Source: Kofleriaceae bacterium (GTDB lineage Bacteria > Myxococcota_A > Polyangia > Haliangiales > Haliangiaceae). Taken from it: 64,000 bases of DNA. The notes beneath the pieces were generated by a model. That model worked only from the letters and a program-made list of their open reading frames with translations. It was not told the DNA's origin and did no database searches. The stretch's first letter is position 1. Each line of letters starts with the position of its first letter. The position numbers were made by a program, and so were the translations under genes. Below, piece by piece: positions 45,555 to 59,227 of this stretch. The stretch lies in NCBI GenBank assembly GCA_048500355.1, contig JASNYD010000006.1, positions 224,211 through 288,210 of the forward strand, read 5' to 3'.

Positions 45555-46439
45555 ATGAAGCCGGTCCCCCCCCCCATCGACATCAGCGGTCGCCGCGAGG
45601 GCGTGTGGTTCGAGCGCGGCTTCGTGTGGGTGTGCCGGGTCGCCATCGTCCTGCCGCTGGTCACCCTGGTCTGGCTCCTGGGCGGCGTGATCGCCCGCGG
45701 CCTCGGCCGCATCGACCTCGGCTTCCTGCTCGACGCCCCGTCCCAGCTCGACGCCACCACCGGCGGCATCTGGCCGGCGCTGATGGGCAGCCTGTGGCTC
45801 ATCGTCATCACCGCCGCGGTGTCGCTGCCGGTCGGGGTCGGGGCCGCGCTCTACCTCGAGGAGTACGGCAAGCGGACCCGGCTGGGCACGGTGGTCGAGA
45901 TCGCGATCGCCAACCTCGCCGGCGTGCCGTCGATCATCTACGGCATGCTGGGCCTGGGCCTGTTCGTGCGCTGGATGGCGCTGGGCGAGACCGTCATCGC
46001 CGGCGCCCTGACCCTGGCCCTGCTGGTGCTGCCGGTGGTGATCATGTCGTCGCGGGAGGCCCTGCGCACGGTCAAGGACTCGCTGCGCGAGGCCGCGCTC
46101 GGCCTGGGCGCCACCCGCTGGCAGACCACCCGCCACGTCGTCCTGCCCATGGCCATCCCCGGCATCCTGACCGGCGCCATCCTCGCGATCTCCCGGGCCA
46201 TCGGCGAGACCGCGCCGCTGGTGGTGGTGGGCGCGGTCGCCTTCATCCTCTACGCCCCCGACGGGCTCGACGCCGAGTACACGGCCCTGCCCATGCAGAT
46301 CTTCCAGTGGACGTCCAACCCCCGGCGCGAGTTCCTGACCAACGCCGCGGCCGGCATCGTGGTCCTGATGTTCACGCTGTTCCTGCTCAATTCGGTCGCC
46401 ATCCTGTTGCGCAACCGCTTCCAGAAACGCATGTACTAG
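45555..46439 (+). CDS. pstA: phosphate ABC transporter permease
   Basis: PstA-type permease, [13 protein letters not shown] region. Confidence 0.9.
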
Positions 46440-46446
46440 GGTCCTC

Positions 46447-47238
<792 letters not shown>

Positions 47239-47321: not shown

Positions 47322-48620
47322 GTGCCGACCCCGAAGCGCGTCGCGTTCGCAGCCCTCCTGACACACGTCGTCGCCACCGGCGGCCTCGCCGCCGCCCAGC
47401 CCGCGGGCCCCGCCGATCCCGACGAGGCCAGCCCCGCCGACCTCGCCGCTGGTGCCCCCGCCACCCCCGAGGGCGACCCGCCCGCCGACGGCGAGGAGGT
47501 CGAGGCCGAGGAGGTGGGCGAGCCGATCATCGATCGCGGCGAGCCCCGGGCCGAGGCCGGCTTCGACAAGGGCTTCTTCATCAAGAGCGCCGACGGCAAG
47601 TACAGCATGACGGTGACCGGGCGCGTCCACCCCTACTACAGCCTCGACCGCCGCACCGGGCCCGTCGACTACCGTCAGGCCTTCGAGGTGCGGCGCGCCC
47701 GCCTGGTCTTCGACGGCGACGTCCACGGCGATCACCTCGGCTACAAGCTGCAGATCGACTTCGGGCGCGGCGTGGTGACGCTCAAGGACTTCCACTTCGA
47801 CCTGGCGCTGGCCGACCAGGTCTGGCTGCGCGTCGGCCAGTGGAAGCGGCCGTTCTCGCGCCAGCACATCACCTCGAGCGGCCGCCAGGAGCTGACCGAC
47901 CGCGCGATCACCGACAAGGCCTTCGGCGCCGGCCGCGACGTCGGCCTCGCGCTGCGCAACGACTACGAGAAGTCGCCCGATCTCGAGTGGACCGTGGGCG
48001 TGTTCAACGGCACCGGCGACGCCGCCCGCCTGACCGGCACGGTCGAGGTCGACCCGGTCACCGGCGAGGGCACGATCACCGGCGGCGGACTGTCCAACGT
48101 GCCGACGACCTTCCGGCCGGCCGTCATCGGCCGCGTCGGCCTCAACGGCGGCAAGATCAAGGGCTACAGCGAGGCCGACCTCGAGGGCGGCGGCCTGCGC
48201 TGGGGCGCGGCGGCCAGCGTGTGGCTCGAGGGCGATCTCGACGAGAACGACGCGTCCAACCAGAAGGTCGAGCTCGACTACGTGGTCAAGCACTCCGGCT
48301 TCACCACCACCGGCGGCTTCTACGGCATGACCGCGCAGACCGCGGCCCAGACCTTCTCCAGCCAGGAGCTGGCCTTCGTCGGCTTCCACCTCCAGGCCGG
48401 CTACATGGTCACGCCCCGCGTCCAGCTCGCCGCCCGCTACGCGCTGGTCGACGCCCGGCTCGACGACAGCAAGGACCAGCAGGAGCTGGCGCTCGGCGGC
48501 AGCTTCTACGGCCACAAGCACGACGCCAAGCTGGCGGCGGCGCTGCGGCTGTTCAAGAACGGCGACGCCGGCTTCGGCGACGCGATCCTGCTCGAGGTGT
48601 CGAGCAACGTCGGCTGGTAG
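47322..48620 (+). CDS. outer-membrane porin, putative phosphate-selective (OprO/OprP-like), paralog 1
   Basis: Signal peptide, acidic Pro/Asp/Glu linker, beta-barrel-like alternating pattern; immediately downstream of pstSCAB. Confidence 0.65.
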   Translation: MPTPKRVAFAALLTHVVATGGLAAAQPAGPADPDEASPADLAAGAPATPEGDPPADGEEVEAEEVGEPIIDRGEPRAEAGFDKGFFIKSADGKYSMTVTGRVHPYYSLDRRTGPVDYRQAFEVRRARLVFDGDVHGDHLGYKLQIDFGRGVVTLKDFHFDLALADQVWLRVGQWKRPFSRQHITSSGRQELTDRAITDKAFGAGRDVGLALRNDYEKSPDLEWTVGVFNGTGDAARLTGTVEVDPVTGEGTITGGGLSNVPTTFRPAVIGRVGLNGGKIKGYSEADLEGGGLRWGAAASVWLEGDLDENDASNQKVELDYVVKHSGFTTTGGFYGMTAQTAAQTFSSQELAFVGFHLQAGYMVTPRVQLAARYALVDARLDDSKDQQELALGGSFYGHKHDAKLAAALRLFKNGDAGFGDAILLEVSSNVGW

Positions 48621-48684: not shown

Positions 48685-50001
48685 ATGGGGCCCCCTCTGT
48701 CGCCACGCCCGCCCGCCGTCACCGCCGCGCTCGCCGTCGCCCTCGGGTTGACGCTCCTCGCCGACGCCGGCCTCGCCCGGGCCCAGCCCGCCGACGAGGA
48801 CGAGGCCTCGCCCGCCGATCTCGGCGAGCCCGACGCCGACCCCGGCGGCGACGCGGCCGGGGAGGACGAGGAGGTCGAGGCCGAGGAGATCGGCGGCCCC
48901 GAGATCGATCGCGGCGAGGGCGTGACCGAGGTCGGCTTCGCCGACGGCTTCTTCATCAAGGCCGCCGGCGGCAAGTACACGCTGCGCCTGAGCGGCGGCG
49001 TGCAGCCGGCCGCCACCCTGACCCGGACCACCGGCCCCAGGGACTGGACCGGCGCGTTCTCGGTCCGGCGCGCCCGCCTCGCCCTCGACGGCAACCTCCA
49101 CGGCAAGGCCCTGCGCTACGGCCTCCAGCTCGACGCCGGCGGCGGCGTGGTCTCGGCCCAGGATCTCTACCTCGACGTCGCGCTGGGCCAGCGGCTGTGG
49201 CTGCGCGCCGGCCAGTGGAAGCGGCCGTTCTCGCGCCAGCAGCTCACGCCCTATCAGCGCCTCGAGCTCGGCGAGCGCGCGATCACCGACGCCGTCTTCG
49301 GCGCCGGCCGCGATCTCGGCGTCGCCGTGCACAACGACCCCGGGCGCGCGTCCGGCCTGGAGTGGGCGGTGGGCGTGTTCAACGGCACCGGCGCGGCGCC
49401 GTGGCTCGGCGGCACGGTCGCGACCGATCCGGCGACCGGGGCCGGGACGATCACCGGCGGCGGCTTCACCAACGTCCCGCGCGAGCTGGCGCCGGCGGTG
49501 GTCGCGCGCGTCGGTCTCGCCGAGGGCGGCGACGGCTACAGCGAGGCCGACCTCGAGGGCGGGCCCCTGCGCTGGGGCGTCGCGGCCAGCGCCTGGCTCG
49601 AGGGCGACCTCGATCGCGACGACGCCTCGAGCCAGCGGGTCCAGCTCGACTACCACGTCAAGGTCGCCGGCTTCGCCTCCACCGGCGGCTTCTACGGCAT
49701 GACCCGCCAGACCGGCGCCCAGCCGTTCTCGACCCAGGAGCTGGCCGCGGTCGGCTTCCACCTCCAGGTCGGCTACCTGGTCGCGCCCCGGCTCCACCTC
49801 GCGGCCCGCTACGCGCTGATCGACGCTCGCCCGGCCGCCGGCGCCGCCGCCGCCGACCAGCACGAGCTCGCGCTCGGCGGCACGTACCACGGCCACGGCC
49901 ACCAGGCCAAGGTCACCGCCAGCGTCCGCCTCGTCAAGACCGGCGACGCCAGCCTGACCGACCTCGTGCTGTTCGAGCTGCTCGGCTTCGTCGGCTGGTA
50001 G
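48685..50001 (+). CDS. outer-membrane porin, putative phosphate-selective (OprO/OprP-like), paralog 2
   Basis: ~50% identical to the preceding gene over full length (shared GFFIK, WLRAGQWKRPFSRQ, WAVGVFNGTG, GFHLQ.GY, ARYAL.DAR, LELLGFVGW). Confidence 0.65.
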   Translation: MGPPLSPRPPAVTAALAVALGLTLLADAGLARAQPADEDEASPADLGEPDADPGGDAAGEDEEVEAEEIGGPEIDRGEGVTEVGFADGFFIKAAGGKYTLRLSGGVQPAATLTRTTGPRDWTGAFSVRRARLALDGNLHGKALRYGLQLDAGGGVVSAQDLYLDVALGQRLWLRAGQWKRPFSRQQLTPYQRLELGERAITDAVFGAGRDLGVAVHNDPGRASGLEWAVGVFNGTGAAPWLGGTVATDPATGAGTITGGGFTNVPRELAPAVVARVGLAEGGDGYSEADLEGGPLRWGVAASAWLEGDLDRDDASSQRVQLDYHVKVAGFASTGGFYGMTRQTGAQPFSTQELAAVGFHLQVGYLVAPRLHLAARYALIDARPAAGAAAADQHELALGGTYHGHGHQAKVTASVRLVKTGDASLTDLVLFELLGFVGW

Positions 50002-51631: not shown

Positions 51632-51737
51632 GCCGGTGGCTGCGTGGCCTGGGTGGAGCTGTCGCCAGGGTGACCTGCCCGATCCTGCCGGTACGGTCGA
51701 TGGCGGCGCGCGCATCCGATGCGCTAGGGTCAACGTC

Positions 51738-52190
51738 ATGTCGATGAACGGGGAGCTCCGCCTGATTCCGCCCGAGCTCATGGATCAGTTGGACGACGAG
51801 GATGTGGTCGACGGCCTGATGGATGGTGACGGGCTCTCCGTCGGCAAGGCGTGGAACGGCTTGCACTACCTCTATTGCGGCGACGGGACGGCGGGCGAGA
51901 GCGCGATCAGCGGTGGCATTCCCCTCGACCATGGCGACACCGGCTACGGGCCGCCGCAGTACCTGACGCCGGACGAGGTCGCGGCCTACGCGCGCGAGCT
52001 CGAAACGCTGACCGATGAGAGGCTCCGCGACGCATACGATGCGAAGGAGATGGAGCAGGAGAGCGTCTATCCGGGTGGCTGGGACGACCCGTCCAATCTG
52101 GAGTGGCTCCTCACAGAAGCGCGCAAGGTGCGCGAGTTCTATCGCGAGGCGTCGGCGAAGGGCGCGGGGGTATTGCAGTTCCTCGCGTAG
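51738..52190 (+). CDS. DUF1877 (YfbM-like) family protein
   Basis: 150 aa; resembles YfbM family (MSMNGELRLIPPELMDQL...LHYLY); noticeably lower GC than flanking genes. Confidence 0.65.
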   Translation: MSMNGELRLIPPELMDQLDDEDVVDGLMDGDGLSVGKAWNGLHYLYCGDGTAGESAISGGIPLDHGDTGYGPPQYLTPDEVAAYARELETLTDERLRDAYDAKEMEQESVYPGGWDDPSNLEWLLTEARKVREFYREASAKGAGVLQFLA

Positions 52191-52475
52191 TCGCTCTGCC
52201 TCGGCGAGAAGGTCGGGCTCCTCGCCGACGCGCGGCTCTGCCCCTGGACTGCGCCAAGTACCTCGCCGAGGAGGGCGACCGCCAGCACCTTCTTCGATCG
52301 TCGGGCGTGGCACGGGTCGTCCGTGTCGTCGCTTCGCGCCCGGTCGGCCTGGGGTGTCTGGTCCCCACGATGCCCTTCGTGTCACCCTGGTCGACGAAGC
52401 CGCGGGGATCACGCGGCCAGGCCCGCCGACAAGCCGCCGGCGACACCCCGGCGGGCGGGCGGATCGCGACACGGG

Positions 52476-53348
52476 CTACCCTTGCGCGTCCACGGCCTGC
52501 ACCGGAGCGCCGACGAGAATCGGTGCCATCAGGTCTTCCAGGCGCCGCCGCCGCTCTCCTGCGACGGGCGTCAGCGCCGTCTCGATCGACTCCGTCAGCT
52601 GGATGTACGTCAGCTCGCCCACCCGATCGACCCGGGCCGGCTCGACCTCCGCCTTGACGCGCGCCAGCCCGCCGATGGCCTCGAGGTGGCCGTCGTGGAG
52701 GTAGGTCCCCCAGCGCGGATGCCGGGCGTACCTGCGACCGATGAACTTGAACCACTCCGCGGCCAGGCTGGTCTGCTTCCGGAACCCTGCGGGCAGCCCG
52801 AGGTCGACGTCGCCCTGGGGCGTGTCGAGGATCAGGTTCATGAGCCACGTGTCGCAGATGGCCAGGTCGTACGTTGGCCACGCCCCGAGGATCGCGTGCA
52901 GCACACCCAGCTCCGTCACCAGCTCGTGCATCAGCTCGATCCAGGCAGCGAACGACTTGCCCGGCGGCAGCTCCGCCGATCGACACGTGACTCGCAGCTG
53001 GAAGGGCTCGTTCCATTCCTCTCGCGAGCGATCGAGGTTGAGCATGACCCTGGTGAAGTTCCCGTCCCCCCTCGCACGGTTCATGTAGAGGCGGCTCAGC
53101 TTGTCGGACCGCAGCCCCTCCAGGATCGGCGCCGAGCCATTCTTCCCTCCCACGCGGACCGACCTCCGGTCGTCTCGCTTGTGCAGCCCCGAGTACGACG
53201 CCCACCACGGGATCCATGGCCACCGCTTGTCGACCAGGAGGTCGGCGACGCGCTGCGCTCGGTCCGGGTCGACCCACACGGCCTTCTCGAAGAACGCCAC
53301 GAGACCGGCATGAGGAAACTGGCTGTTGATGCTCGGTTGCCGTGCCAC
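52476..53348 (-). CDS. Trp-rich 290-aa protein, tandem paralog 1 of 4 (putative immunity protein of the upstream secreted toxin-like protein)
   Basis: GTG start preceded by GGAGTAGGA; MARQPSINSQFPHAGLVAFFEKAVWVDPDRAQRVADLLVDKRWPWIPWWASYSG...; natural amino-acid composition, whereas all other frames are Arg/Pro/Gly junk; no signal peptide. Confidence 0.7.
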   Translation of the reverse strand: MARQPSINSQFPHAGLVAFFEKAVWVDPDRAQRVADLLVDKRWPWIPWWASYSGLHKRDDRRSVRVGGKNGSAPILEGLRSDKLSRLYMNRARGDGNFTRVMLNLDRSREEWNEPFQLRVTCRSAELPPGKSFAAWIELMHELVTELGVLHAILGAWPTYDLAICDTWLMNLILDTPQGDVDLGLPAGFRKQTSLAAEWFKFIGRRYARHPRWGTYLHDGHLEAIGGLARVKAEVEPARVDRVGELTYIQLTESIETALTPVAGERRRRLEDLMAPILVGAPVQAVDAQG

Positions 53349-53694
53349 GCGACATCCTACTCCGAGAGGTCGACCACGAGCGCTGTGTGAACCCCACCTG
53401 GCTGGTGACGCCGCGCTCGCCACGACCTCGCCATCACTGATCGCGACCAGCCGTTCGGGCTTGGATGTCGACGGAGGGGATGGCAGCTCGGATCGCGTCG
53501 CTCCAGGCCGAGATGGCGACCAGGGAGCGCGACGCCGTCGCGCGAACCTGGATCGCCCCGGTCGGCCTGGGGTGTCTGGTCCCCTCGATGCCCTTCGTGT
53601 CACCCTGGTCGACGAAGCCGCGGGGATCACGCGGCCCAGGCCCGCCGACAAGCCGCCGGCGACACCCCGGCGGGCGGGCGGATCGCGACACGGG

Positions 53695-54567
53695 CTACCC
53701 TTGCGCGTCCACGGCCTGCACCGGGGCGCCGACGAGAATCGGTGCCATCAGGTCTTCCAGGCGTCGCCGCCGCTCTCCTGCGACGGGCGTCAGCGCCGTC
53801 TCGATCGACTCCGTCAGCTGGATGTACGTCAGCTCGCCCACCCGATCGACCCGGGCCGGCTCGACCTCCGCCTTGACGCGCGCCAGCCCGCCGATGGCCT
53901 CGAGGTGGCCGTCGTGGAGGTAGGTCCCCCAGCGCGGATGCCGGGCGTACCTGCGACCGATGAACTTGAACCACTCCGCGGCCAGGCTGGTCTGCTTCCG
54001 GAACCCTGCGGGCAGCCCGAGGTCGACGTCGCCCTGGGGCGTGTCGAGGATCAGGTTCATGAGCCACGTGTCGCAGATGGCCAGGTCGTACGTTGGCCAC
54101 GCCCCGAGGATCGCGTGCAGCACACCCAGCTCCGTCACCAGCTCGTGCATCAGCTCGATCCAGGCAGCGAACGACTTGCCCGGCGGCAGCTCCGCCGATC
54201 GACACGTGACTCGCAGCTGGAAGGGCTCGTTCCATTCCTCTCGCGAGCGATCGAGGTTGAGCATGACCCTGGTGAAGTTCCCGTCCCCCCTCGCACGGTT
54301 CATGTAGAGGCGGCTCAGCTTGTCGGACCGCAGCCCCTCCAGGATCGGCGCCGAGCCATTCTTCCCTCCCACGCGGACCGACCTCCGGTCGTCTCGCTTG
54401 TGCAGCCCCGAGTACGACGCCCACCACGGGATCCATGGCCACCGCTTGTCGACCAGGAGGTCGGCGACGCGCTGCGCTCGGTCCGGGTCGACCCACACGG
54501 CCTTCTCGAAGAACGCCACGAGACCGGCATGAGGAAACTGGCTGTTGATGCTCGGTTGCCGTGCCAC
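53695..54567 (-). CDS. Trp-rich 290-aa protein, tandem paralog 2 of 4 (putative immunity protein)
   Basis: Identical or near-identical to paralog 1; same GTG/RBS context. Confidence 0.7.
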   Translation of the reverse strand: MARQPSINSQFPHAGLVAFFEKAVWVDPDRAQRVADLLVDKRWPWIPWWASYSGLHKRDDRRSVRVGGKNGSAPILEGLRSDKLSRLYMNRARGDGNFTRVMLNLDRSREEWNEPFQLRVTCRSAELPPGKSFAAWIELMHELVTELGVLHAILGAWPTYDLAICDTWLMNLILDTPQGDVDLGLPAGFRKQTSLAAEWFKFIGRRYARHPRWGTYLHDGHLEAIGGLARVKAEVEPARVDRVGELTYIQLTESIETALTPVAGERRRRLEDLMAPILVGAPVQAVDAQG

Positions 54568-54922
54568 GCGACATCCTACTCCGAGAGGTCGACCACGAGC
54601 GCTGTGTGAACCCCACCTGGCTGGTGACGCCGCGCTCGCCACGACCTCGCCATCACTGATCGCGACCAGCCGTTCGGGCTTGGATGTCGACGGAGGGGAT
54701 GGCAGCTCGGATCGCGTCGCTCCAGGCCGAGATGGCGACCAGGGCGGCCAACGGAGCGCGACGCCGTCGCGCGAACCTGGATCGCCCCGGTCGGCCTGGG
54801 GTGTCTGGTCCCCTCGATGCCCTTCGTGTCACCCTGGTCGACGAAGCCGCGGGGATCACGCGGCCAGGCCCGCCGACAAGCCGCCGGCGACACCCCGGCG
54901 GGCGGGCGGATCGCGACACGGG

Positions 54923-55795
54923 CTACCCTTGCGCGTCCACGGCCTGCACCGGAGCGCCGACGAGAATCGGTGCCATCAGGTCTTCCAGGCGCCGCCGCCG
55001 CTCTCCTGCGACGGGCGTCAGCGCCGTCTCGATCGACTCCGTCAGCTGGATGTACGTCAGCTCGCCCACCCGATCGACCCGGGCCGGCTCGACCTCCGCC
55101 TTGACGCGCGCCAGCCCGCCGATGGCCTCGAGGTGGCCGTCGTGGAGGTAGGTCCCCCAGCGCGGATGCCGGGCGTACCTGCGACCGATGAACTTGAACC
55201 ACTCCGCGGCCAGGCTGGTCTGCTTCCGGAACCCTGCGGGCAGCCCGAGGTCGACGTCGCCCTGGGGCGTGTCGAGGATCAGGTTCATGAGCCACGTGTC
55301 GCAGATGGCCAGGTCGTACGTTGGCCACGCCCCGAGGATCGCGTGCAGCACACCCAGCTCCGTCACCAGCTCGTGCATCAGCTCGATCCAGGCAGCGAAC
55401 GACTTGCCCGGCGGCAGCTCCGCCGATCGACACGTGACTCGCAGCTCGTACGGTTCGCTCCATTGCTCCTTCGTAGGATCGAGGTCGAGTGCGACCCTGG
55501 TGAAGTTCCCGTCCCCCCTCGCACGGTTCATGTAGAGGGTACCCATCTTGTCGGACCGCAGCCCCTCCAGGATCGGCGCCGAGCCATTCTTCCCTCCCAC
55601 GCGGACCGACCTCCGGTCGTCTCGCTTGTGCAGCCCCGAGTACGACGCCCACCACGGGATCCATGGCCACCGCTTGTCGACCAGGAGGTCGGCGACGCGC
55701 TGCGCTCGGTCCGGGTCGACCCACACGGCCTTCTCGAAGAACGCCACGAGACCGGCATGAGGAAACTGGCTGTTGATGCTCGGTTGCCGTGCCAC
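54923..55795 (-). CDS. Trp-rich 290-aa protein, tandem paralog 3 of 4 (mosaic variant; putative immunity protein)
   Basis: Same frame and length; central segment KMGTLYMNRARGDGNFTRVALDLDPTKEQWSEPYELRV differs from KLSRLYMNRARGDGNFTRVMLNLDRSREEWNEPFQLRV in the other copies. Confidence 0.7.
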   Translation of the reverse strand: MARQPSINSQFPHAGLVAFFEKAVWVDPDRAQRVADLLVDKRWPWIPWWASYSGLHKRDDRRSVRVGGKNGSAPILEGLRSDKMGTLYMNRARGDGNFTRVALDLDPTKEQWSEPYELRVTCRSAELPPGKSFAAWIELMHELVTELGVLHAILGAWPTYDLAICDTWLMNLILDTPQGDVDLGLPAGFRKQTSLAAEWFKFIGRRYARHPRWGTYLHDGHLEAIGGLARVKAEVEPARVDRVGELTYIQLTESIETALTPVAGERRRRLEDLMAPILVGAPVQAVDAQG

Positions 55796-56141
55796 GCGAC
55801 ATCCTACTCCGAGAGGTCGACCACGAGCGCTGTGTGAACCCCACCTGGCTGGTGACGCCGCGCTCGCCACGACCTCGCCATCACTGATCGCGACCAGCCG
55901 TTCGGGCTTGGATGTCGACGGAGGGGATGGCAGCTCGGATCGCGTCGCTCCAGGCCGAGATGGCGACCAGGGAGCGCGACGCCGTCGCGCGAACCTGGAT
56001 CGCCCCGGTCGGCCTGGGGTGTCTGGTCCCCTCGATGCCCTTCGTGTCACCCTGGTCGACGAAGCCGCGGGGATCACGCGGCCCAGGCCCGCCGACAAGC
56101 CGCCGGCGACACCCCGGCGGGCGGGCGGATCGCGACACGGG

Positions 56142-57014
56142 CTACCCTTGCGCGTCCACGGCCTGCACCGGGGCGCCGACGAGAATCGGTGCCATCAGGT
56201 CTTCCAGGCGTCGCCGCCGCTCTCCTGCGACGGGCGTCAGCGCCGTCTCGATCGACTCCGTCAGCTGGATGTACGTCAGCTCGCCCACCCGATCGACCCG
56301 GGCCGGCTCGACCTCCGCCTTGACGCGCGCCAGCCCGCCGATGGCCTCGAGGTGGCCGTCGTGGAGGTAGGTCCCCCAGCGCGGATGCCGGGCGTACCTG
56401 CGACCGATGAACTTGAACCACTTGGCCGCGAGGCTGGTCTGCTTCTGGAACCCTGCGGGCAGCCCGAGGTCGACGTCGCCCTGGGGCGTGTCGAGGATCA
56501 GGTTCATGAGCCACGTGTCGCAGATGGCCAGGTCGTACGTTGGCCACGCCCCGAGGATCGCGTGCAGCACACCCAGCTCCGTCACCAGCTCGTGCATCAG
56601 CTCGATCCAGGCAGCGAACGACTTGCCCGGCGGCAGCTCCGCCGATCGACACGTGACTCGCAGCTGGAAGGGCTCGTTCCATTCCTCTCGCGAGCGATCG
56701 AGGTTGAGCATGACGCTGGTGAAGTCGCCGTCCCCCCTCGCACGGTTCATGTCGAGGCGGCTCAGCTTGTCGGACCGCAGCCCCTCCAGGATCGGCGCCG
56801 AGCCATTCTTCCCTCCCACGCGGACCGACCTCCGGTCGTCTCGCTTGTGCAGCCCCGAGTACGACGCCCACCACGGGATCCATGGCCACCGCTTGTCGAC
56901 CAGGAGGTCGGCGACGCGCTGCGCCCGGTCCGGGTCGACCCACACGGCCTTCTCGAAGAACGCCACGAGACCGGCATGAGGAAACTGGCTGTTGATGCTC
57001 GGCTGCCGTGCCAC
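56142..57014 (-). CDS. Trp-rich 290-aa protein, tandem paralog 4 of 4 (putative immunity protein), translationally coupled to upstream gene
   Basis: GTG 8 nt after the TAG stop of the 734-aa gene, which fixes the start codon choice for all copies; a few substitutions (LSRLDM, GDFTSV, FQKQ, AAKWF). Confidence 0.7.
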   Translation of the reverse strand: MARQPSINSQFPHAGLVAFFEKAVWVDPDRAQRVADLLVDKRWPWIPWWASYSGLHKRDDRRSVRVGGKNGSAPILEGLRSDKLSRLDMNRARGDGDFTSVMLNLDRSREEWNEPFQLRVTCRSAELPPGKSFAAWIELMHELVTELGVLHAILGAWPTYDLAICDTWLMNLILDTPQGDVDLGLPAGFQKQTSLAAKWFKFIGRRYARHPRWGTYLHDGHLEAIGGLARVKAEVEPARVDRVGELTYIQLTESIETALTPVAGERRRRLEDLMAPILVGAPVQAVDAQG

Positions 57015-57022
57015 GCGAGATC

Positions 57023-59227
57023 CTACTCCGAGAGGTCGACCACGAAGTCCTTGAACAGCTTCCCCGCCGGCGGACAGTACTCGTAGACGCGCAGCTCCGG
57101 CTTGAGTTCGGCGGTCTGGCTGGCCTCGTCGAAGCAAGGGCGCAACACCTCGAGGTTGCCGGTCAGCTCGTCGCGCCTCTTCTTCCCGCGAAGTGCGTTC
57201 ACGATCTCCCGGATGCCGTCTTCGATCTGCACCTTCCCCAGCTTCCTGGCATCCTCGTTGTTCGGCTTGATCTCGACGACGTAGCAGACGTTCCCGTCCA
57301 CGCGGATGCAGTCGACACGGCGATTGCCATAGGTGAGCTCGCTCCTGGTGCACTTGCTCGAGTCGCCCTGGATGCGCCTGTGCTCCTGCTTGCCGACCTC
57401 GATCTGGGCTCGGACCTCCGGATCGTTGGCGCCGTTGAGCTCGTCGTTCAAGAGGCTCGCGAGGCTGCTGAGCCGACGCTTGACGCTGTCGCGCGCCTTG
57501 GTCGCAGCCTCGCGGATGTCATCGTCCTCGGCCTTCATGAGGCGCTCGGCGTGGCCGATGAGGGCCAGGCCGCTCGTGTTGATGTTCCCCCACTGGGGTC
57601 GGACGCGGTCGCGCATCCGGTCCGCGATCTCTCGTAGCTGCGCGGCGTGGGCGTCACCCTCCGCGTAGTCCCCGGGCGACTCGGGGATCGAGCAGAAGAG
57701 CTGCCGGACGTTCCGCGTGTCCTCGACGTACCAGCGACGGAGCTCCTTGATGCCATCGTCCCACCTCCGCAGCTCCGAGCGGAGCTGCGCCAGGTCGGCG
57801 GTGGCGCCCTTGAGCGCGGCCTGCAGCTGCTCGATCGCGGCCTTGGCGATCGGTCCGTCCTCGCCCATCGCGATCTTCTCGCAGTCCCGCTGCGCGATCT
57901 CGCGCGCCTTCTTCCAGTACTCGAAGGTGCTCTCGGCGGCGGTGCGGTACTTCCCGGTGAGGCTCGACCACTGTCCTTCGGAAGGTGCGAACCGCTGGGT
58001 CTCCGAGCGCGCACGCTCCATCGTCGCATGCTGCTCGTTGGTCTTCGCCAGGCCCGCGATGATCGGCTGAGCAAGAGACTTCGCTTGCAGCTTGATGTGC
58101 TCGATGCCCTTGGTGTCGTTCTTCTCGACGTAGCGGCGAACCAGGTCGGAGAGTCGCTGCGATGCCTCCTGACAGCGCTTGGGGGCGTTGTCGGCGAGGA
58201 ACTGGGCCTCCTTGAGCACGCGGAGCGGCTTCAGGGCCTCCCGCGCGGCGCGGACGTTGTTGCGCCACACCTCGAGCCGGCGCTTGGCCTCCCCGTCGTT
58301 GCCCTTGACGCGGTCGAGCTGTTCGAGGAGGCGGTCGATCTCGTTCAGCTTGCCGTCCGCCCGGGCGATGTCGGAGGCGTCGCTGTCGCCCGCGAGACCA
58401 TCGAGGCTCGACGCCATCTCGCCGAGCTGGCGGTCGAGCTGCTCGTAGACCATCTCGATGCCCCTCTTGCCCTCGTAGAGCTTCCTCATCGCATCCTCGA
58501 CCAGCGGGTTGCGCTCCTCCCGGGCGAGGTTGCCGCAGACGTCGTCGCGCTTCACCTGCTCCGACTGCTTGACGGTGTGCTCGTACATCGTGCGGGCAGA
58601 GGTGACGAGGTTGTTGCGGACGTCGCTCCACCTACCATCGCTGTACGAGAAGTCGTCGGCGCGATCGTACCAGGTGTACATCTCGTTCTTGGTCCGCTCG
58701 GCCTGCTCCATCGCCTCCTTGCCCACTCGGCCAAACTCGCGCGCGAGCTTGGGCACCTCGTCGACGCCGCGCGGGTCCGGACTGTCGGTGTAGGTCTTCA
58801 TCCGCGAGGTCAGCTCGCGCACCGCCTGCTCGCACTTCCTGGGCCACTCATCGACCTTGCGGTGGCCGTTCTTGAGCTCGCGCAGGTAGCCAGCGGCGTC
58901 CTTGTAGCGGCTGGCGATGTCCGGGTAGGACTCGCCCATGCGGCGGGCGTCGGAGTCGTCGTCGGCCTGGTTCTTGAGGTCGCGTGCCTTCTCGGAGACA
59001 CGCCCGGCGTAGTCGATGGTGCGGTCGAGGTCCGACGTGCTCGAGTCACCGGGCACGTCGCGCAGCTCGCTGGCGATATCGGAGAGCAGACGCTCGATCT
59101 CCTCGCGGAGCTGGCGGCGCTTCGACTCATCGGCCCGGACCGGGCCTCCGGACGCCAGCGCCACTACGCCGAGAGCCAAGGCGGCGAGCTGGATGCGGTG
59201 CACACCGCGCTGCTGTCTCTTCGTCAT
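57023..59227 (-). CDS. Sec-secreted 734-aa coiled-coil protein with C-terminal PD-(D/E)xK-like nuclease motif (putative polymorphic toxin / bacteriocin-like effector)
   Basis: ATG 59227 with GGAGG 7 nt upstream; signal peptide MTKRQQRGVHRIQLAALALGVVALASGGPVRA; ~600 aa of charged heptad-like helical sequence; C-terminal ~100 aa with RVDCIRVDGNVCYVVEIKPNN (D...EIK); lower GC than the genome. Confidence 0.75.
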   Translation of the reverse strand: MTKRQQRGVHRIQLAALALGVVALASGGPVRADESKRRQLREEIERLLSDIASELRDVPGDSSTSDLDRTIDYAGRVSEKARDLKNQADDDSDARRMGESYPDIASRYKDAAGYLRELKNGHRKVDEWPRKCEQAVRELTSRMKTYTDSPDPRGVDEVPKLAREFGRVGKEAMEQAERTKNEMYTWYDRADDFSYSDGRWSDVRNNLVTSARTMYEHTVKQSEQVKRDDVCGNLAREERNPLVEDAMRKLYEGKRGIEMVYEQLDRQLGEMASSLDGLAGDSDASDIARADGKLNEIDRLLEQLDRVKGNDGEAKRRLEVWRNNVRAAREALKPLRVLKEAQFLADNAPKRCQEASQRLSDLVRRYVEKNDTKGIEHIKLQAKSLAQPIIAGLAKTNEQHATMERARSETQRFAPSEGQWSSLTGKYRTAAESTFEYWKKAREIAQRDCEKIAMGEDGPIAKAAIEQLQAALKGATADLAQLRSELRRWDDGIKELRRWYVEDTRNVRQLFCSIPESPGDYAEGDAHAAQLREIADRMRDRVRPQWGNINTSGLALIGHAERLMKAEDDDIREAATKARDSVKRRLSSLASLLNDELNGANDPEVRAQIEVGKQEHRRIQGDSSKCTRSELTYGNRRVDCIRVDGNVCYVVEIKPNNEDARKLGKVQIEDGIREIVNALRGKKRRDELTGNLEVLRPCFDEASQTAELKPELRVYEYCPPAGKLFKDFVVDLSE

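Follow-up and report, generated by a model that had tools for sequence, protein, structure and literature searches.

The TseV/TsiV pairs combine VRR-Nuc effectors of the T6SS with immunity proteins of the DUF3396/PF11876 family (PA0822/PA0821; PMC9635880). In the TseV3:TsiV3 model, the N-terminus of toxin helix alpha2 (P256, nine residues past the catalytic K247) meets the immunity protein at its central beta-sheet, and the substitutions P256K and L131K each abolish neutralisation (PMC9635880). Tandem immunity paralogues are known from esaG and tipC, which lie downstream of a polymorphic T7SS nuclease toxin (Garrett et al. 2022, PMC9484751). Homogeneous polyimmunity loci, in which tandem genes of one family share the same orientation with no toxin cassette between them, have been proposed as cover against the toxins of non-kin strains (Zhang et al. 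2012, PMC3482391). In the same work Tox-REase-9 is paired with Imm54 and Tox-REase-5 with Imm52, and the Tox-REase-9 signature is given as GxxxH, E, D, ELKP and YxxE (PMC3482391). The shuffling of tandem immunity paralogues by homologous recombination (esaG, tipC) and polyimmunity loci as a class are already documented.

In our study, a 64-kb window (the whole stretch of DNA that was analysed) from the MAG of an uncultured Kofleriaceae bacterium (Myxococcota) was found to carry a predicted toxin gene followed by an array of four predicted immunity genes. Its likeness to esaG and tipC lies in recombination between paralogues through conserved blocks, which leads to mosaic genes and to changes in copy number. 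On the other hand, esaG and tipC belong to Firmicutes and to the T7SS, have an unrelated immunity fold and occur as clearly non-identical copies, whereas the window copies are near-identical bar short patches at the putative interface, and the toxin has matching patches. In comparison to TseV/TsiV, the window toxin has a Sec signal peptide, a long helical cysteine-rich N-terminus and no PAAR, its nuclease domain is Tox-REase-9-like and not VRR-Nuc, and the similarity of the immunity protein to PF11876 is sub-threshold; moreover, TsiV paralogues are clearly diverged whereas the window copies are ~99% identical. The neighbours within ~12 kb are vWA, Laminin_G_3, TLC-like, DUF1877, fn3, porin and Pst genes, and the absence of VgrG or any other T6SS gene among them gives no ground for classing the toxin as a T6SS effector. 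As in homogeneous polyimmunity loci, where two or more members of one immunity family stand in tandem on the same strand without an intervening toxin gene, four copies follow one another on the minus strand. The short intergenic distances of genes sharing one transcript were not found, the spacers being of 346-355 nt; the array is also attached directly to the toxin gene, its spacers are long (346 nt) where those of polyimmunity loci are short, and Zhang et al. 2012 do not name its family among those that form such loci. We class the array, in the terms of Zhang et al. 2012, as a homogeneous polyimmunity locus. The predicted pairing of a REase-9-like toxin (sub-threshold in Pfam) with an immunity protein of the TsiV/Imm52 fold is new with respect to the Imm54 partner of Zhang et al. 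2012.

Results

The tandem array consists of four head-to-tail units (52334-57045, minus strand) with a unit spacing of 1219/1228/1219 nt. In transcription order, the first immunity copy, U4 (56142-57014, minus strand), lies directly 3' of the toxin gene and encodes isoform alpha (D88, D96, S99, Q190, K197); the second, U3 (54923-55795, minus strand), is the bearer of the patch and encodes isoform gamma; the third, U2 (53695-54567, minus strand), and the fourth, U1 (52476-53348, minus strand), both encode isoform beta, giving three isoforms from four genes. All four are intact 873-nt ORFs with a GTG start, each encoding 290 aa. Every unit holds 23 nt from the end of the toxin ORF, a gap of 8 nt with a ribosome-binding site, the 873-nt immunity gene and ~315 nt of spacer, and the last unit ends early, 142 nt past its stop codon. 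The last copy is convergent with a DUF1877 gene (51636-52190, plus strand), and the same junction is found in an independent contig (L004). The earlier note had counted three copies of ~99% identity; the identity is correct, while the tandem units are four. U1 and U2 show 2 synonymous differences and encode the same protein, and U4 differs from U2 by Y88D, N96D and R99S in one block and by R190Q and E197K in another, plus synonymous changes. All amino-acid differences between the copies are confined to two hypervariable regions. The alternation of sites 803 and 842 and of the length of a G-run in the spacer along the array (U1=U3, U2=U4) suggests that a block of two units was duplicated. The copy number and the place of the patch in the array are those assembled in one MAG.

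Some peculiarities of the deposited record and of the neighbourhood were also observed. A GenBank accession exists only for the U3-type protein, and U1, U2 and U4 are apparently without protein annotation; the locus tags HS111_37565 (U3-type protein) and HS111_37570 (toxin) are adjacent, though U4 sits between the two genes in the window. On a second contig (324 kb) of the same MAG, HS111_25140 (P0063) and HS111_25155 (P0067) are frameshifted fragments nearly identical to the C-terminal half of the immunity gene, and stem either from a second, degenerate array or from redundant assembly of the array repeat. Elsewhere in the window, tandem paralogous phosphate-selective porin O/P genes (47322-48620 and 48685-50001, plus strand; 71-83% nucleotide identity in blocks) lie directly 3' of a phosphate-type ABC permease and ATPase (45555-47238).

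In the U3-U2 spacer, a 9-nt insertion at 54745-54753 had been reported upstream of the patch gene. The insertion is real, but it is 10 nt long (cggccaacgg on the plus strand, 54745-54754), and because the genes are on the minus strand this spacer is downstream of the patch gene. The net gain of 9 nt is the sum of this insertion and a separate loss of 1 nt of G ~110 nt away; a 1-nt difference in G-run length (54859-54871; GGGCCTGGCCGCG vs GGGCCTGGGCCGCG) alternates between the units. The 10-nt insertion is also present in an independent Logan contig (L006). A promoter and terminator scan of the spacers found nothing above expectation, their RNA structure was not beyond that of shuffled controls (z -0.55), and neither a toxin remnant in them nor a homologue elsewhere was detected. 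An ORF of 85-88 aa on the minus strand (53434-53691, 54653-54919 and 55881-56138) begins 6 nt past each immunity stop, and in the U3-U2 spacer its frame is restored by the 10-nt insertion together with the 1-nt loss, with only the middle of the ORF altered. The GC content by codon position of this ORF (71/67/81 vs 69/47/89 in the immunity gene) is non-coding-like (GC2 67%), hence the ORF is probably non-coding and its frame was probably restored by chance. The distal ~173 nt of the spacers (55827-55999, 54599-54780 and 53380-53552) are missing after the last copy, where homology ends at 52334, and had no match in any other sequence retrieved. This missing part indicates that the array is not a simple duplication of the present toxin-immunity-DUF1877 layout.

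No Pfam match and nothing in NCBIfam was obtained for the immunity copies, which belong to a small family without annotation (64 clusters). The AlphaFold model of the immunity protein, built with 61 homologues (pLDDT 90.4, pTM 0.88), is predicted to have the same fold as a solved member of TsiV/DUF3396 (PF11876). Pfam TsiV (DUF3396, PF11876) gave weak matches in 31 of the 61 family members scanned singly (best E 0.0016, below threshold), and a profile search of PDB sequences with the family returned nothing. A scan of a genome collection with the family profile identified 13 loci, none with >70% identity, the source genome being outside the collection; all 13 come from Kofleriaceae, Haliangiales or Myxococcales MAGs. 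The immunity gene is found directly downstream of a PD-(D/E)xK toxin in the window (8-nt gap), and a toxin homologue stands immediately 5' of it in all related loci that include upstream DNA. On the strength of the modelled fold and this gene order, we are inclined to regard the 290-aa protein as an immunity protein and a distant structural relative of TsiV/Imm52, its function being what we infer from the two.

Expansion of the immunity gene recurs across the family in Kofleriaceae/Myxococcales MAGs: L024 (6001-8400) has three diverged tandem copies, L013 (3-979) has two adjacent copies and L016 (6966-7502) has an orphan toxin-CT fragment with immunity fragments. A JGI contig of 1200 nt (P0055) carries a 313-aa ORF in which the first ~165 aa of a toxin homologue are fused to the C-terminal half of an immunity homologue, and it is either a deletion or a chimeric contig.

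The toxin gene (57023-59227, minus strand; protein GenBank MBE7454361.1) encodes 734 aa, in which a signal peptide is followed by ~560 aa modelled as long helices and, at the C-terminus (aa ~600-734), by a PD-(D/E)xK domain. The N-terminus is signal-peptide-like, residues 34-596 are modelled as long helical hairpins, and ten cysteines are invariant across the toxin family, which fits an exported protein. No PAAR and no other Pfam domain was found in the N-terminal region, and a Foldseek search of the full model against the PDB gave generic helical matches only, none with E <= 0.001. The AF2 model (pLDDT 88.9) shows an alpha-beta-beta-beta-alpha-beta core in the C-terminal domain, with the elements H603-621, E628-633, E636-644 (D639), E647-655 (E652, K654), H658-679 and E708-715. 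Residues D639, E652 and K654 are invariant among 42 homologues, as are G612xxxH616 and E652-I-K654-P655. The modelled C-terminus thereby has the features that define the PD-(D/E)xK superfamily, i.e. the core fold, the D on beta2 and the (D/E)xK on beta3. Tox-REase-9 (PF15650) is the top or second match throughout, with 14.2 bits (E 0.053) for the window toxin, short of the gathering threshold of 27.3 bits, and 17-25 bits in relatives and other alleles; the matches to UL24 and Cas4 are sub-threshold. From the Tox-REase-9 signature, GxxxH, D and E-I-K-P are present and invariant, and the E and YxxE elements have no confident placement. The models and motifs thus tilt the balance towards a Sec-exported PD-(D/E)xK nuclease of the Tox-REase-9-like type as the predicted nature of the toxin.

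Three toxin alleles (A, B and C; loci L007, L009, L010 and L011) are on record and differ almost only in codons 658-677 and 702-709. The first mosaic patch (57197-57256, minus strand; codons 658-677) covers helix alpha2 right after the E-x-K strand and reads KLGKVQIEDGIRE in the window and KKGTGQIRDGIQE and DRGEGQIKDGIRE in two other alleles. The second (57101-57124, minus strand; codons 702-709) lies just before strand beta4, overlapping its start, and reads ASQTAELK in the window vs AKETAKLE in the other alleles. Within the patches dS is 0.34-0.52 and dN is 0.17-0.23, against a dS of 0.002-0.005 elsewhere, and outside the C-terminal domain the alleles differ by one or two substitutions in ~1.9 kb. 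Residue 663, nine positions past K654, is L, K or R across the three alleles. In the window, toxin allele A is followed by isoform alpha. In L010, a single short-read contig that is possibly chimeric across units and whose first 461 nt are unlike the array locus, the gene directly after allele C is an immunity gene carrying the U3-type patch. The positions at which alleles differ are, in both proteins, the most variable columns of the family (mean entropy ~2.7 vs 1.4; reached in 0 of 20,000 permutations). A family-wide partial Mantel test of toxin against immunity patches in 17 pairs, which controls for overall divergence and has low power at 40-60% divergence, was not significant (partial r 0.035, P 0.39).

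The mosaic patch of U3 (55447-55546, minus strand) consists of 21 substitutions in codons 84-117, arranged in two blocks (84-86 and 102-117). Clustered substitutions had been noticed at 55440-55555 of the copy at 54923-55795, and the comparison of U3 with U1 bears this out, as all 21 nucleotide differences are inside these 100 nt and none is in the remaining 773 nt; the protein strings quoted for the patch were also correct. The chance of 21 differences falling within one 100-nt span of 873 nt is <= 3e-18. Through the patch 12 amino acids are changed, a further 2 codons change in a purely synonymous way, and five codons are altered at two or three positions. Its dS is 0.37 and its dN 0.21 (dN/dS ~0.6), while both are 0 in the flanks with ~200 synonymous sites. 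The U3 protein is identical to GenBank MBE7454360.1. Mapping of the patch onto the AlphaFold model of the 290-aa protein, which the earlier note had proposed, places it on strands 84-90, 99-104 and 116-123 and on helix 107-110. By analogy with TseV3:TsiV3, immunity residues 84-117 probably face toxin helix alpha2. Mutagenesis by a diversity-generating retroelement was considered and rejected, since the changes are not adenine-specific: the 21 sites involve all four bases, with A at only 5 (U1) or 7 (U3).

The same 21-site patch was found in two ENA assemblies (L004 and L005), in NCBI contig JAANMY010018480.1 (L010) and in protein MCL4223612.1 of a second MAG, in which it is combined with the U4-type Q190/K197. 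Of the patch, Logan contig L006 carries just the first sub-block (codons 84-86); it also has the 10-nt insertion. As the patch and the insertion occur in independent assemblies, neither is an error private to the source assembly. All four combinations of the patch with the 190/197 block occur across assemblies, and sites 803/842 are also recombinant; this pattern fits frequent recombination between units and strains, part of which could be mimicked by chimeras of the short-read graph. The circular unitigs L005 (exactly 1219 + 141 nt) and L006 (1229 + 30 nt) support a tandem layout in other assemblies too, as does the fact that the short-read contigs with the toxin gene all end at or just within the first immunity copy. 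In L004 the patch-type copy is the last one, beside DUF1877, where the window has isoform beta. The related strains with the patch at the same locus have flanks that are ~98-99% identical.

The search for a donor of the patch covered the window, a second locus of the organism and related species. Both tblastn and blastn in the 64-kb window detected only the four copies. The second toxin-immunity locus of the same organism (L026:8001-11058; ENA ERZ27309507 k141_256569; same protein as HS111_17840) has a toxin 55% and an immunity protein 39% identical to those of the window, and its immunity gene does not match the patch DNA. This locus contains a single immunity gene, followed by a 22-residue remnant of a toxin C-terminus. 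At the 21 diagnostic sites, comparison with seven related species pointed neither to a clear donor nor to a clear ancestral state; the closest relatives were of the U1 type slightly more often. A metagenome scan using the conserved flanks, with 100 nt left free between them, returned one contig, which was already known. Gene conversion from a divergent paralog elsewhere had been suggested as the origin of the patch: its recombination part is upheld by the dS of 0.37 vs 0 and by the recurrence of the patch, while no divergent-paralog donor was found in the window, in L026 or in the seven related species. As the dS of the patch is raised and local selection would not raise dS, the segment appears to be old and to have arrived by recombination, an origin that is supported by the sequence comparisons. 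Since the patch is present at the same locus in related strains and no donor was found in the places searched, the nearest source seen, and the simpler one, would be an allele of this locus. The other proposal, diversifying selection on a surface that contacts the toxin, is plausible, on indirect evidence, as the force keeping the variant, given the most variable columns and the alpha2 toxin alleles, whereas new mutations arising in place are disfavoured.

Discussion

Taken as a whole, our results make it reasonably likely that the locus is a polymorphic toxin-immunity system with a four-unit array and interface patches that are shuffled by recombination. The immunity gene would have been amplified to four tandem units, probably 1 -> 2 -> 4, because U1 matches U3 and U2 matches U4 at the marker sites. 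Recombination between the units and with alleles of related strains would keep the units near-identical, and it may also move segments of ~25-100 nt with alternative residues at the hypervariable positions of the family. The patch of U3 would then be an old, diverged allele of codons 84-117 set in an otherwise identical gene. By the TseV3:TsiV3 analogy, its strands and short helix may face toxin alpha2, the segment in which toxin alleles differ. Three immunity specificities are probably encoded in the array: alpha would serve against the resident toxin, and gamma and beta against the toxin variants of sibling strains. The allele patterns are consistent both with matched interface variants of toxin and immunity protein and with an array that serves as a store of immunity against the toxin alleles found in sibling strains.

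The possibility of a chimera of assembly or of strain mixture, in which the real arrays are uniform or single-copy and the patch of a co-occurring strain was misplaced into one repeat, has some weight, since the window was taken from a MAG. In short-read assemblies the array is collapsed to one-unit circular unitigs and the contigs break at its edges, L004 has the patch-type copy last whereas the window does not, and the frameshifted fragments P0063 and P0067 on the second contig of the MAG suggest a redundant or error-rich assembly of the repeat. Moreover, variant blocks are separated by identical runs of 47 nt and 220 nt, lengths that suffice for chimeric paths through the assembly graph. 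However, a second MAG (KJZ91) has the same toxin (allele A) and, two accessions later, a patch-type immunity protein, so that the patch type accompanies toxin allele A in two independent MAGs. Further, the unit periods of 1219 and 1228/1229 nt are both found in independent data, and the alternating markers (U1=U3, U2=U4) are orderly, unlike random mis-polishing. We therefore consider a chimera unlikely; even if it were true, the patch would be a real allele and the conclusions on toxin and immunity alleles would stand. Gene conversion with a divergent paralogue at another site of the genome as donor would be in line with the presence of a second locus of the family in the organism (HS111_17840; L026) and with the raised dS of the patch, which requires a diverged source. 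It is nevertheless quite improbable, as the 64-kb window holds no such donor, the immunity gene of L026 is only 39% identical and leaves the patch DNA unmatched, none of the seven related species is a clear donor at the 21 sites, and the patch is identical at 21/21 sites at the same locus in related strains, which makes an allele of that locus the simpler source.

Positive selection on new point mutations, acting in place in U3 after the duplication, could be read from the 12 amino-acid changes in 34 codons at hypervariable positions. The dN/dS of ~0.6, the dS of 0.37 vs 0 over 200 flanking synonymous sites, the five codons altered at two or three positions and the identical patch in other assemblies on different backgrounds make this scarcely credible. 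An amplification that acts by dosage only or is decaying, with the patch as a neutral relic or U3 as a non-functional copy, would agree with the ~99% identity expected of a recent unstable amplification and with the negative family-wide co-variation test. Of the two tandem TsiV paralogues of Salmonella bongori, the first alone neutralised the toxin next to it (PMC9635880), which points in the same direction. Such a role is nonetheless improbable to a high degree, because the four ORFs are intact, their amino-acid differences are confined to two hypervariable regions, and the toxin alleles carry matching mosaics on alpha2.

The reading of a toxin-immunity system with patches shuffled by recombination can be extended, tentatively and with clear doubt, to a standing repertoire in which one isoform is kept per circulating toxin allele (alpha-A, gamma-C and beta-B) and specificity resides in exchangeable interface cassettes. 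If this were true, the cassettes would be ~20-30 toxin codons (alpha2 and the beta4 loop) and ~34 codons of the immunity beta-sheet, moved by recombination. They would form a natural minimal lock-and-key set of <=13 toxin and <=17 immunity residues in a previously uncharacterised family of Sec-exported myxobacterial toxins. In the colicin E DNase/Im pairs and the CDI CdiA-CT/CdiI orphan modules, specificity is likewise set by few variable interface residues on a conserved scaffold, and extra immunity genes guard against the toxins of relatives. The folds and delivery systems of both are unrelated to those of the window system. CDI and Rhs diversify by swaps of the whole C-terminal domain and not by patches of 20-30 codons.

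Conclusion

Our study describes what is probably an ordinary but unusually clear case of toxin-immunity co-evolution by recombination. The new aspects are the toxin/immunity pairing, a predicted Sec-exported toxin with a structurally unmatched helical N-terminus, and the confinement of variation to short patches in both partners. Polymorphic toxin-immunity systems determine which strains coexist, and the residues responsible for specificity are usually hard to find because cognate pairs differ throughout. In the natural variants found here, 12-17 immunity residues and ~13 toxin residues differ on otherwise identical backgrounds, hence small swaps could map the specificity code. The modelled fold further suggests that TsiV-type immunity proteins occur outside type VI secretion, and the family of Sec-exported, cysteine-rich, long-helical toxins has so far been seen in uncultured Kofleriaceae/Haliangiales alone.
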